Shown here: positions 10,085-16,318 of the stretch, piece after piece | How the letters are laid out: the number at the start of each line of letters is the position of its first letter | Position numbering within the stretch: position 1 is the stretch's first letter | NCBI GenBank assembly: GCA_016187415.1 | Contig: JACPJT010000004.1 | Coordinates: 169,392-233,391 of the forward strand | Direction: 5' to 3' | Length of the DNA: 64,000 bases | DNA from: Candidatus Aenigmatarchaeota archaeon | GTDB taxonomy: Archaea > Aenigmatarchaeota > Aenigmatarchaeia > CG10238-14 > SCSR01 | The notes under the pieces: generated by a model | The model's database searches: none | What the model saw: only the letters and a program-made list of their open reading frames with translations | Told to the model about the DNA's origin: nothing | Position numbers and translations under genes: made by a program

Positions 10085-11128
10085 TTAATTTTCATATAAC
10101 TTGAATAGTTTTTCTTTTTTTCGCAGAAGAGTGAAATTAACAGTATCTCTAAATCTAAGTATATTCTCCTTTCCATAAATGTTAACATAATAAACGTAAT
10201 ACGAATAACGTCGAGGTGATTTGAAATTTTTGTAATACTTTTTGAAACTTGTGTTTATTCTTAATTTGGTTAACAGTTTGGTTACGCCTAATAATCCTTT
10301 TCCATTTACACTGTCACATGTAATGAAGTTTCTTGCGACACATCCTTCACTATCAAAAAAACCTCTCAAAAAAGAAGAAATTATATCTTTATTCCTACTC
10401 GTCATTATTATTTGAGGAACACGCCATTTTCTTACTCCAAATTTCCCAATCGATAGCAAATCATTACAAATAAACTCAGGTGAAATGTAAGCTGCAAATG
10501 TATTTCTTTTGGGACGAAAGTTATAATTAAAACCAAGTCCATATACATCCTTAAAACATTTAATAAAGAATTTTATGAAATCTTCATCTTTTTTATTGAT
10601 TTCCAATTGAACAAAATCTTCATTAATGTGGCCATCCCCACAAAGAACTCCAAGAATGTACGCCTTTTCAGATGTTATTTTTTTAAAAGGTTTTGGTGGG
10701 ATGATTAATCTAAAATTACGTAAGAAAGTCTTAACCCTTTTTGTGTTCATGGATTCTTTTTTATTCCTCAAGACAACATTGTACTTAGTTAGCCATTTCC
10801 GAACAGTATTGCCTACTACATTAAATTTTTTACTTATCTCTGTGGGGCTCATACCTTTTTCCAAATAAAGGTTTAGTAAAATATCCCTTTTAGGTGGTTT
10901 TCTAGGTTTGAACCAAGTTGACTTGTTTCTACCAGGTATTCTATCATTATATAACCAATTCGAAATTGTAATCTCTGGTATCAATATTTTGTGTCTTGAT
11001 TTAATCAATCTTGAAATAAGTCTAGAACCAATCTTCTCTTTATTATATAACTGGACTGCAATTCTATGAAATTGCGATTTCTCTTTATCTGATATTTCTG
11101 CATACCTCAACATATATAGCAATAGCAT
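10085..11128 (-). mobile_element. Free-standing LAGLIDADG homing endonuclease with N-terminal HTH
   Basis: Two LAGLIDADG helices (YILGVLCGDGHI, FLRGFFDSEGCV); AT-rich; not inside another gene. Confidence 0.85.
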
Positions 11129-14056: not shown

Positions 14057-15121
14057 CTAATAGGTTTCATGTAATTGTCTTATTTCCTTAATAATTTTTT
14101 TTCTCAACTTGTAGGTATTCCCGTGCATGACATAACCGAACCAGCCTTCAAGCATCTTGCTTGCCTTGTCGCCAATTGTCCCCCCCCCATTGACGCATAG
14201 ATTGTTTAGCTTCCTTTCAAATTTATCCAGATTGCTCTTTCTTGGAAGTTTGTAGTGGTAGAACACCCTGAACCCCAGAAGGGTCACGCCATTGTGCAAC
14301 GGGACAATCTTTGACTTGCCCGGATGGAGCTCGAGATTTAGTCTCTGCTTTAAAAAATTAGTTATCAGCCATTTGTATAACAGAAGCCTTTCTTTTGAGT
14401 CGTGCAATATGACGAAATCGTCAACATAACGGATATAGTATTTTGCTTTCAGGTTGTGCTTGACATAATAGTCCAATTCGTTCAGATATATGTTGGCGAA
14501 GAACTGGCTTGTCAGATTGCCTAGAGGCATTCCCTTATTTGATATTTTAAAATCATAATTACCAAGGATTGTTTTTATCAACTGCAGGGTATTCTTGTCT
14601 TCTATTTTCTTTCCTATAATTTTCATCAGGATTCCTATATCGATCGTGTCGAAGTAGTGTCTGATATCGGCTTTTAATGCATATCCGACAACCATATTCT
14701 TATCCTTGGCGTTCCTTGTTAACCGACCGTTGTTTGCAACTTTCCTCTTGAACTCATCGAATCGTTTCAATCCTGCATGAACTCCCTTGTTTTTCCTGTT
14801 GGCATAAGTGTCGTGAATAAAGATTTTTTCGAATATAGGCTCTATTAAGTTACATATTGCGTGATGTATCACCCTGTCTCTGAAAGCTGAAGCATGAATC
14901 ACGCGTGTTTTTGGGTCTCTGACAATGAATCTCTTTAATGTTCTGGGTTTGTATGTTTGTGTTTTCAGTTCTTGTTTTAATTTTGTTAATTCGTCATCCA
15001 AGTTGGATTCAAACTCTTGTACATACCACTTCTTGCTTTTCCCTTTCTTGGCTTTCTTGAACGCTAGTCTGAGATTTTCAAAGGAGCACAATTTGTCGAA
15101 TAGATTGTTATAGGTTTTCAT
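14057..15121 (-). CDS. DGR-type reverse transcriptase
   Basis: FRDRVIHHA, KADIRHYFDTID, GMPLGNLTSQFFANIYL (SQ signature), YIRYVDDF; 354 aa with no endonuclease or maturase extension; adjacent TR/VR pair. Confidence 0.95.
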   Translation of the reverse strand: MKTYNNLFDKLCSFENLRLAFKKAKKGKSKKWYVQEFESNLDDELTKLKQELKTQTYKPRTLKRFIVRDPKTRVIHASAFRDRVIHHAICNLIEPIFEKIFIHDTYANRKNKGVHAGLKRFDEFKRKVANNGRLTRNAKDKNMVVGYALKADIRHYFDTIDIGILMKIIGKKIEDKNTLQLIKTILGNYDFKISNKGMPLGNLTSQFFANIYLNELDYYVKHNLKAKYYIRYVDDFVILHDSKERLLLYKWLITNFLKQRLNLELHPGKSKIVPLHNGVTLLGFRVFYHYKLPRKSNLDKFERKLNNLCVNGGGTIGDKASKMLEGWFGYVMHGNTYKLRKKIIKEIRQLHETY

Positions 15122-15450
15122 AAAAATCCTGGGCCATCTGGGTTATTCAAAACAGAACCCCTGTTGGAGTTCAGGTCTGTTGAAGATTTCCTGTTCTCAG
15201 GCTCCCTGTTCGAATTCAGGTTCGGCCTTTCGCGACTCACATTCTCACGGTCCCTGAAGTTCCAGATGAGAGCTTGAAGTTAGCCTAATCCACCAAACTT
15301 GCACTGCGATTTTAGTATTCGTTCATCACTACTAACTATCACCGCTGTATTTCATGGCTAAACGGAAAAAGCCCTAATGCACTATGGAAAGGCATGTAGC
15401 CCAGACTTTGCTGTCATCTGCAGTCAAGCACAGCCCAGGAATATAGAATT
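15122..15450 (-). ncRNA. Putative DGR RNA (about 170-nt leader + TR + 20-nt spacer before RT); ends approximate
   Basis: No ORF of 60 aa or more; TATA-like TTTAAAT at 15455-15461; leader segments 15433-15440 and 15400-15405 are complementary to spacer segments 15127-15134 and 15137-15142. Confidence 0.65.
15142..15273 (-). repeat. DGR template repeat (TR), 132 nt
   Basis: Aligns to VR 15917-16015 over 99 nt with 15 mismatches, all at TR adenines on the coding strand; rich in AAC/AAT; two extra segments of 15 and 18 nt. Confidence 0.95.
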
Positions 15451-15475
15451 GTGAATTTAAATATTAAAATCTGAT

Positions 15476-16318
15476 TTATATTTCTGTAATAGGTACGCCT
15501 GCTCTTTTAGCCAACTCTTGCAATCTTTCGTATTGCGTGCGTGGCACTCTAACATTGACAAAATCTTCTGCTTCTCGGCTAGGCATCGTCGGCCATGCGA
15601 GAATTCCGCTTGATCTCACCCAACAACTTTTCCATATGCCGTCTCTTAATCCCCTGTAGGCATCTCTCACTTGTTTCTCTTTCAAGCCCTCTCCGCTTTC
15701 GAATCTTTTAACCTCGTCTCCCATCCACTGTTTGCTCGGTTCTTCTGGCTGGACGAATGCGGCTATTCTATTCACATCTTGTTCGTCAGAATTTACCAAA
15801 CCGTTCTTTTGAACGTATAATTGCGTCTCCCACAAATCTTCGCCTCTTAGTGCCACTTCAGGCTGGACGAAATAGCCAATGCCAGGTATTTTTATACGGC
15901 CTTCGCCTTCGGCGACGCTACCCAAAACAGAACCCCTGTCGGAGTACCCGTACTCAGGCTCCCTGCCCGAATCCAGGTCCGGCCTCTCACGGCCCCCGAA
16001 GCCCCAGATGAGAGCCCTTAATCCTTCATATAATTCTGGATTTGAATTTGTCCAGACATAAGTATTATCTGCTTTTAATGGTTTTACTGCATCTCGAGGC
16101 ACCAATAAATTCATCATTTCAGGCGTTATCGTTCCGTTTTGTCTCACCCAATTTACTTGTTTGAATGGATTGTCCATGCCCTCTAAATTAATCCTATAAT
16201 CCCTGTTTGCCCTGTTGACATCATCTACTCTATAACTAGAAATTATGATAGGGCTTCCATTTCTTGGAAGTTCCGCGCCTGTTATTCTTGGTGAGTATGA
16301 TTGAACAGCCGTTGCCAT
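15476..16318 (-). CDS. DGR target (variable) protein, probable CLec-like domain with a C-terminal extension
   Basis: Contains the VR in frame (ALIWGFGGRERPDLDSGREPEYGYSDRGSVLGS); preceding YVW...P...GL pattern resembles DGR CLec targets. Confidence 0.9.
   Translation of the reverse strand: MATAVQSYSPRITGAELPRNGSPIIISSYRVDDVNRANRDYRINLEGMDNPFKQVNWVRQNGTITPEMMNLLVPRDAVKPLKADNTYVWTNSNPELYEGLRALIWGFGGRERPDLDSGREPEYGYSDRGSVLGSVAEGEGRIKIPGIGYFVQPEVALRGEDLWETQLYVQKNGLVNSDEQDVNRIAAFVQPEEPSKQWMGDEVKRFESGEGLKEKQVRDAYRGLRDGIWKSCWVRSSGILAWPTMPSREAEDFVNVRVPRTQYERLQELAKRAGVPITEI
15903..15915 (-). promoter_or_regulatory. DGR retrohoming hairpin with GAA triloop
   Basis: TCGCC-GAA-GGCGA on the coding strand, 1 nt after the VR 3' end; matches the GRA-loop hairpins described for archaeal DGRs. 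Confidence 0.75.
15917..16015 (-). repeat. DGR variable repeat (VR), 99 nt / 33 codons
   Basis: 13 A>G and 2 A>T differences versus TR; no mismatch at non-A positions. Confidence 0.95.

Follow-up and report, generated by a model that had tools for sequence, protein, structure and literature searches.

A conserved long-range RNA junction probably clamps the template region of an Avd-less DGR from a DPANN-type archaeon

What positions the template RNA of a DGR whose cassette holds no avd gene? DGRs reach their greatest abundance in nano-sized archaea and bacteria, and to our knowledge their mechanism is known solely from one Avd-dependent phage element. A survey by Wu et al. 2018 found avd in 74% of DGRs, leaving about a quarter without Avd, and suggested an Avd-independent mechanism for the latter (PMC5758913). 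The DNA analysed here, a stretch of 64,000 nucleotides hereafter called the window, is a low-GC (~41%) archaeal chromosome segment whose genes include an Lhr helicase, a thymidylate kinase and regulators of the TRASH and TrmB types. It contains a compact DGR on the minus strand, made up in order of a target gene, a 201-nt noncoding leader, a template region, a 21-nt spacer and a reverse transcriptase (RT) gene.

15476..16318, minus strand: DGR target gene, 280 aa, orphan family (ORF list)
~15917..16015, minus strand: variable region (VR), placed by alignment to the template region
15903..15915, minus strand: GC hairpin UCGCC-GAAG-GCGA just 3' of the VR, read from the sequence; the expected DGR target-recognition element
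15142..15273 (5' end ~15273), minus strand: template region (TR), placed by TR/VR alignment
14057..15121, minus strand: DGR reverse transcriptase, 354 aa, Pfam RVT_1 (E 7.9e-19, 68.6 bits), with LGNLTSQ and YVDD motifs

DGR reverse transcriptases carry a [LIV]GxxxSQ signature motif, and an RT domain with a motif of this type adjoins the TR. All substitutions between TR and VR (17/17) fall at TR adenines, and the element has therefore been active. The VR is placed mid-protein in the target, not C-terminally, and 13 target homologues display hypervariable columns at the same place; a hairpin GCGCC-GAAG-GCGC likewise lies 3' of the VR in loci L009 and L010. Homologues of the RT number in the thousands, those with a named source being DPANN archaea (Aenigmatarchaeota, Nanoarchaeota, Woesearchaeota and Pacearchaeota).

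The target belongs to a small family (13 homologues of 240–280 aa) in which the VR is followed by a conserved LLGS..EG..RLKI.GIDYFVQPEV block, and some members end in a ribbon-helix-helix-like tail (Pfam RHH_3, E=0.0075, below the cut-off). A Pfam scan of the 280-aa protein returned no domain above cut-off, its AlphaFold model was poor (mean pLDDT 59.7) and a Foldseek search of that model against the PDB gave nothing below E=0.7. Two further observations concern the RT and its surroundings. The RT coding sequence contains a G9 homopolymer (14188-14180, minus strand, codons NGGGT), a site at which L002, L003, L004 and L021 have a frameshifted or truncated RT; many database homologues of the RT measure just 317–324 aa, and the RT gene of L006 has a G11 run elsewhere. 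The G9 run could be a slippage on/off switch or an assembly error. A free-standing LAGLIDADG_3 protein, often accompanied by an HTH, is encoded ~0–3 kb downstream of the RT in the window (10085-11128, minus strand) and in the unrelated loci L055 (7446-8591) and L062 (6133-7368), which may be coincidence or may reflect an element-linked nuclease.

An earlier note on this DNA, written from the sequence, had reported that the usual avd position, a gap of about 200 nt, holds no suitable ORF and that no Avd is recognisable in the window. Both observations held. Neither strand of the 201-nt stretch from the target stop (15476) to the TR contains an ORF that reaches 40 aa, and Pfam and Avd HMM searches of the 64 kb were both empty: neither bAvd (PF22296) nor 23S_rRNA_IVP (PF05635) matched at E≤1 among 31 selected non-overlapping window ORFs of 60–215 aa, and the best hit of the Avd HMM in the six-frame translation had E=3.7, in a search that covered 64 kb out of the contig's ≥252 kb for a protein whose sequences are poorly conserved. 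The target's own C-terminal half, considered as a possible hidden Avd-like domain, matched neither Avd nor any solved structure in its sequence.

The leader and the spacer were also said to be complementary in nested order. The segments concerned, together with the elements between and before them, are as follows.

15433..15440, minus strand: outer helix 5' strand UCCUGGGC; covaries in relatives
15127..15134, minus strand: outer helix 3' strand GCCCAGGA; ends 5 nt before the RT start codon
15406..15432, minus strand: linker separating the 5' strands of the two helices, with a short local hairpin (CUGU..ACAG); it forms the third arm of a three-way junction
15397..15405, minus strand: inner helix 5' strand UCUGGG-C-UA, continuing into the invariant CUACAYGC motif (motif-anchored windows)
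15137..15145, minus strand: inner helix 3' strand UAACCCAGA; the TR contributes its last 4 nt and the spacer its first 5 nt
15455..15461, minus strand: TATA-like box TTTAAAT, read from the sequence, ~22 nt before the outer 5' strand

On the minus strand, all four segments form perfect Watson–Crick pairs as claimed. The outer strand at 15440-15433 pairs exactly with 15134-15127 and can be lengthened to 11 bp if two G-U pairs are admitted (15440-15430 opposite 15137-15127); nested within it, UCUGGG (15405-15400) pairs exactly with CCCAGA (15142-15137). Across one C.A mismatch the inner helix continues with the CUA of CUACAUGC (15399-15397) opposite UAA (15145-15143), so that it reaches into the 3' end of the TR. 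Mononucleotide shuffling of the leader yielded nested perfect stems with the real spacer, one of ≥8 bp and one of ≥6 bp, in 23 of 20,000 trials. When 15442-15122 was folded, the MFE structure held the outer helix and the centroid held both. The pentamer GGCUA occurs twice on this strand, at the start of the leader core (15401-15395, GGGCUACA) and at its end before the TR (15287-15281, AGGCUAAC); judged by its sequence, the second copy could be a weaker alternative partner for the TR end.

Evidence from relatives is more extensive. Sixty-two loci were fetched, and a leader-core profile matched 34 of them; once redundancy is removed, 26 distinct sequences are left in addition to that of the window. 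Both helices recur in these 26 further distinct DPANN-archaeal loci with many compensatory changes, so that the check for retention of the pairing, like the large loop said to enclose the TR, came out in favour of the earlier reading; the loop consists of the TR and the leader core. Each of the 26 has an inner helix abutting the end of the TR, and 0–7 nt beyond that helix lies the sequence with which a 5' strand from near the beginning of the conserved region pairs. The linker between the 5' strands spans 5–80 nt in relatives and often forms a clear hairpin (L005, L038, L061). The outer helix appears as UCCUAGGC/GCCUAGGA, ACGGUAGU/ACUACCGU, GUCUUGGCC/GGCCAAGAC and CCCUAGAGG/CCUCUAGGG, and the inner helix as UCCCAGG/CCUGGGA, AUAGGGUUA/UAACCCUAU and CUGAAACUA/UAGUUUCAG.

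For the inner helix, windows of 9 nt were anchored solely on the CUA of CUACAYGC and on the U of the TR-terminal AAU, and the alignment is therefore free of complementarity bias. Pairing was found in 86.0% of its cells versus 68.5% after shuffling, a value reached in none of 500 shuffles; double changes occupied 53 cells versus 17.6 expected, and sliding the partner by 1–3 columns left 21–46% paired. Across the 27 distinct sequences, both helices together were 88.9% paired versus 55.9% in shuffled sets, a figure inflated in its outer part, where windows were picked by complementarity. The outer helix is therefore better judged by ungapped leader–spacer stem scores, which averaged 24.3 for cognate and 16.9 for non-cognate combinations (sd 3.9). 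These scores and the motif-anchored alignment replaced RNAduplex energies of long leader windows against spacers, which were too noisy. The outer helix is ambiguous or bulged in L056, L057, L061 and L062, and L003 retains both long-range helices with entirely different sequences.

Two unusual layouts separate the helices from the RT gene. In L025, 117 nt lie between the TR end and the RT start codon, ~100 of them past the outer helix; in L031 the leader and TR form a unit (~1680-1975 on the minus strand of that locus) divergent from the RT, followed by an unrelated translation-factor-like gene, with both helices kept. The helices thus stay with the end of the TR rather than with the start of the RT, and the L031 arrangement indicates that the template RNA can be its own transcription unit. 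These layouts bear on the proposal that the TATA-like box drives a separate transcript. The box exists, and most relatives have an A/T-rich block ~22–27 nt upstream of the outer 5' strand; as for the transcript, one beginning at the outer helix is plausible from the sequence and from L031.

The leader itself corresponds to a described RNA family.

15275..15439, minus strand: Rfam RF03019, RT-16 RNA (leader), 88.1 bits versus a gathering score of 50, E 6e-14

The match is full-length (model positions 1-158 of 158), RT-16 also scored above cut-off in the leaders of 20 related loci tested, and it was not found in 14 RT loci that are more distantly related (from CPR bacteria, from Legionella and from other metagenomic contigs). 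RT-1 to RT-19 were described merely as motifs near RT genes, just RT-10 being tied to a DGR, as the BPP-1 spacer (Weinberg et al. 2017, PMC5737381). Like the family as described, the window leader adjoins an RT gene; the family has no assigned function, whereas here it sits upstream of a DGR TR, and the Rfam model draws its first stem, P1, as local, whereas here both ends of that stem are re-paired with sequence beyond the TR.

The discrepancy over P1 admits a rival explanation, namely that the two leader segments pair with each other as a local 5' hairpin and that the spacer match is a by-product of the near-palindromic CCUGGG. The Rfam alignment of the window does pair CCUGGGCUGUGCUU with ACAGCAAAGUCUGGG, and a local leader stem of 8 bp with 2–3 G-U pairs can be drawn in the window, L002, L004 and L021, as can a perfect one of 6 bp in L055. 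That stem nevertheless needs its G-U pairs, whereas the long-range helices are purely Watson–Crick; as modelled by Rfam, P1 in the window contains two mismatches and three G-U pairs and is poorly paired in relatives, being full of non-canonical pairs in L003, L005, L008 and L058. In the other 22 of the 27 loci the local stem shrinks to 3–7 bp (3–5 bp in 19), and L003 has no local pairing option, yet both long-range helices are present. We regard the hairpin explanation as very improbable and conclude from the sequences that what Rfam draws as the 5' strand of P1 corresponds to the outer 5' strand, and the 3' end of P1 to the inner 5' strand, with a variable linker hairpin between them. Since the two leader strands can inter-pair in the window subgroup and in L055, an alternative conformer is possible there.

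The distribution of RT-16 was compared with that of Avd by means of an HMM built from seven Avds of loci without RT-16 and run on stop-to-stop six-frame translations. As a control, it recovered 13 of the 14 loci without RT-16 at E≤4e-32, including two outside the training set, and 7 of 8 candidate ORFs beside the RT in such loci scored above the bAvd cut-off. In the 26 RT-16 loci it gave nothing better than E=0.16. Ten RT-16 loci yielded no Avd match among ORFs of 65–200 aa around the RT, and precomputed Pfam annotation of eight further ones showed no Avd family within 5 kb; these eight lie in unrelated genomic contexts, the target gene being their sole shared neighbour. RT-16 and Avd are therefore mutually exclusive across the 40 sampled loci, in keeping with the conclusions of Wu et al. 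(PMC5758913). Small ORFs between RT and target in nanoarchaeal DGRs have been called Avd-like on pI and mass alone (Paul et al. 2015). Locus L005 derives from the single-cell genome of that study, and its RT–target interval is RT-16.

Taking these results together, the reading to which we give moderate preference is that an Avd-less DGR of a DPANN-type archaeon has its template RNA clamped by a long-range junction, the studied interval comprising both flanks of that RNA. The RNA would probably start at ~15442, just past the TATA-like box. Its first 8–11 nt and the 6–9 nt before CUACAYGC would pair with ~20 nt overlapping and following the TR 3' end, and both helices and the linker hairpin would form a three-way junction that encloses the RT-16 core and the TR as one domain. 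This arrangement would bring the last bases of the TR (AAUAAC) beside CUACAYGC. We infer that reverse transcription begins at this junction, with a priming hydroxyl supplied by a leader nucleotide beside the inner helix and the RT held by the RT-16 core; synthesis would then proceed through the TR and halt at the core's closing stem, 8–10 nt before the TR. The RNA scaffold would thereby probably do the positioning job that Avd does in BPP-1.

A boundary at the inner helix is also visible in the target. The codons under AAUAAC encode an invariant Gly-Ser in 13/13 target homologues, and every locus compared has a fixed difference at the 3' boundary, GGAAUA(A/G) in the TR versus GGGGUA(G/U/C) in the VR (15147-15142 versus 15922-15917 in the window). 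Information transfer therefore stops at the inner helix. The fixed GGAAUA/GGGGUA difference behaves like IMH* versus IMH, unlike random adenine mutagenesis.

The same helices could instead serve as a processing or stabilising stem by which the RNA ends are defined, protected or circularised, comparable to archaeal rRNA flank stems, and not as an initiation platform. The position of the 5' strand at the probable transcript start, the U-run that follows the 3' strand in many loci and the stand-alone RNA gene of L031 are all compatible with such a role. The inner helix nevertheless takes in the last TR bases and abuts an invariant motif, as expected of a priming site. A bulge-helix-bulge (BHB) element at the outer/inner junction was considered and rejected, both interruptions lying at one point and forming a three-way junction, and the U-run is absent from L006, L008 and L032, on which ground a conserved terminator after the outer helix was likewise rejected. 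We give the processing stem little credence and retain the clamped template RNA as the preferred reading.

Comparison with the characterised phage element brings out both the common principle and the points of departure. The BPP-1 DGR RNA consists of the avd 3' end, the TR and a 140-nt Sp (Handa et al. 2018; bioRxiv 10.1101/2023.10.23.563531). Its spacer forms adjacent TR:Sp and avd:Sp duplexes, both required for cis-primed synthesis, the former being the template–primer duplex with priming A56 and the latter using a segment upstream of the TR; a flank duplex is predicted for 207 of 278 Avd-bearing DGRs (bioRxiv 10.1101/2023.10.23.563531). Priming in cis by RNAs of the BPP-1 type uses a 2'-OH and depends on Avd. 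In both systems cis elements pair across the TR through two adjacent duplexes, one of which involves the TR 3' end, where information transfer ends, and both have a GC hairpin 3' of the VR and adenine-specific mutagenesis. In contrast to BPP-1, Avd is absent here, the post-TR spacer measures 21 nt instead of 140, and a structured RNA of ~165 nt precedes the TR, whereas in BPP-1 the structured spacer follows it; Rfam RT-10 gave no match at E≤10. Both duplexes share one strand, formed here by the TR end and the spacer and in BPP-1 by Sp, and the loop closed by the duplexes holds a structured domain as well as the TR.

In its order of parts the RNA resembles a retron msr-msd. The layout runs from the outer 5' strand through the linker hairpin, inner 5' strand, CUACAYGC, RT-16 core and TR to the inner and outer 3' strands, and thus shares with retrons a 5' duplex strand, a site of priming (putative here), a structured RT-recognition domain, a template and a 3' strand, with a duplex that would likewise carry the template 3' end to the priming site. 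Retrons are marked by a template that lacks homology to a target gene and by an RT of the retron clade accompanied by an effector gene. The RNA studied here differs from them in that the RT bears a DGR signature and a chromosomal VR copy with adenine-specific differences exists, and neither a retron effector gene nor a conserved neighbour gene accompanies it.

The mutual exclusion of RT-16 and Avd is a correlation consistent with the inference that RNA acts in place of Avd. A second possibility accepts the helices as real and holds that a protein cofactor is still needed, be it a divergent or trans-encoded Avd or a general archaeal RNA-binding protein. The bRT is inactive without Avd (Handa et al.), and the Avd search covered part of the genome. 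Compensatory restoration of avd:Sp pairing in BPP-1 did not rescue activity (bioRxiv 10.1101/2023.10.23.563531), and pairing alone may therefore not be the whole function. Against a cofactor of this kind, no Avd match appeared in any frame of the window or of the 26 relatives, whereas the profile finds Avd in relatives at 33–40% RT identity; RT-16 cassettes lie in unrelated contexts with no shared neighbour besides the target, and for genomes whose DGRs lack Avd, Wu et al. 2018 (PMC5758913) found no copy encoded in trans. We consider the cofactor unlikely and continue with the RNA scaffold as the preferred reading.

The TR raises a further point, being 33 nt longer than the VR in the window by virtue of two inserts.

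15229..15243, minus strand: TR insert 1, 15 nt, absent from the VR, in hairpin CGUG/CGCG; placement ambiguous by -3 to +2 nt
15170..15187, minus strand: TR insert 2, 18 nt, absent from the VR, in hairpin CAGG/CCUG; placement ambiguous by ~±3 nt

Altogether, 37 TR inserts of 15–48 nt were found in 17 loci, and the 8 nt flanking them on each side are free of mismatches other than at adenines. Among the loci compared they occur solely in the archaeal RT-16 clade, and the Avd-bearing bacterial relatives have gapless TR/VR cores bar one 3-nt indel in L018. Every insert lies within a hairpin of which one stem strand is retained in the VR. If the cut is set two bases 3' of each strand of the 4-bp helix, a placement inseparable from three bases because adenines make the boundaries ambiguous, 36 of the 37 fit a central helix of 3–4 bp, a 3-nt bulge and an inner helix of at least 2 bp. 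Pair statistics at the insert boundaries were computed in Python (MAFFT shifted some rows): the central helix was 94.3% paired (44.9% in shuffled sequences), the inner helix 89.5% (49.2%) and the outer exon–exon helix merely 54.3% (41.5%). An A is the first base to be removed in 34 of 35 distinct cases and opens the second bulge in 35/35.

This geometry recalls the BHB introns of archaeal tRNA, rRNA and a few mRNAs, with a 4-bp helix, a 3-nt bulge 3' of each strand and a helix inside (3-4-3); with the cut set as above, the removed segment begins after the second bulge base on each side, and 15–48 nt falls within the known intron range. It differs in the weak outer exon–exon helix. BHB introns are cleaved by the splicing endonuclease and their exons ligated by RtcB, and DPANN splicing endonucleases tolerate relaxed motifs and introns down to 13 nt (PMC3239211). 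Differences in TR/VR length, reported for 7% of DGRs, have been ascribed to slippage at AAC (Wu et al., PMC5758913). Our literature search found no paper linking BHB motifs with DGRs and no report of a BHB intron in a retroelement template. A K-turn reading of the insert bulges was rejected, no tandem G.A pairs following the bulge, and the retention of a single strand of every stem in the VR speaks against bypass of whole hairpins by the RT. On the sequences, either the TR RNA would be spliced or the RT would jump precisely, template jumping being a live alternative.

A joint explanation, which we put forward tentatively as possible though doubtful, holds that this DPANN DGR clade is Avd-free by virtue of a self-scaffolding, retron-like template RNA whose TR inserts are host-spliced BHB introns. 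The upstream RT-16 domain and the two long-range helices would dock the TR end at the priming motif, and the host tRNA-splicing endonuclease and ligase would excise the 15–48-nt inserts before reverse transcription. Were this so, solely the spliced RNA would match the VR, and the TR DNA could never be mistaken for the target.

Of the elements discussed, the leader as an orphan motif, flank pairing as a DGR principle and the existence of Avd-less DGRs are already known. What is new, as read from the sequences, is the link among RT-16, flank pairing and Avd absence, together with a long-range structure that corrects the Rfam model, a permuted layout resembling that of retrons and the mutual exclusion of RT-16 and Avd. 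The orphan Rfam family RT-16 thereby gains a proposed role and a corrected structure. The locus and its relatives provide a concrete object for asking how the Avd-less quarter of DGRs works: a defined RNA of ~320 nt with two covarying, mutable helices and a candidate priming motif in a small two-gene cassette. If the TR inserts are spliced, this would be the first retroelement template to require host RNA splicing, and splicing would explain TR/VR length differences hitherto attributed to polymerase slippage.
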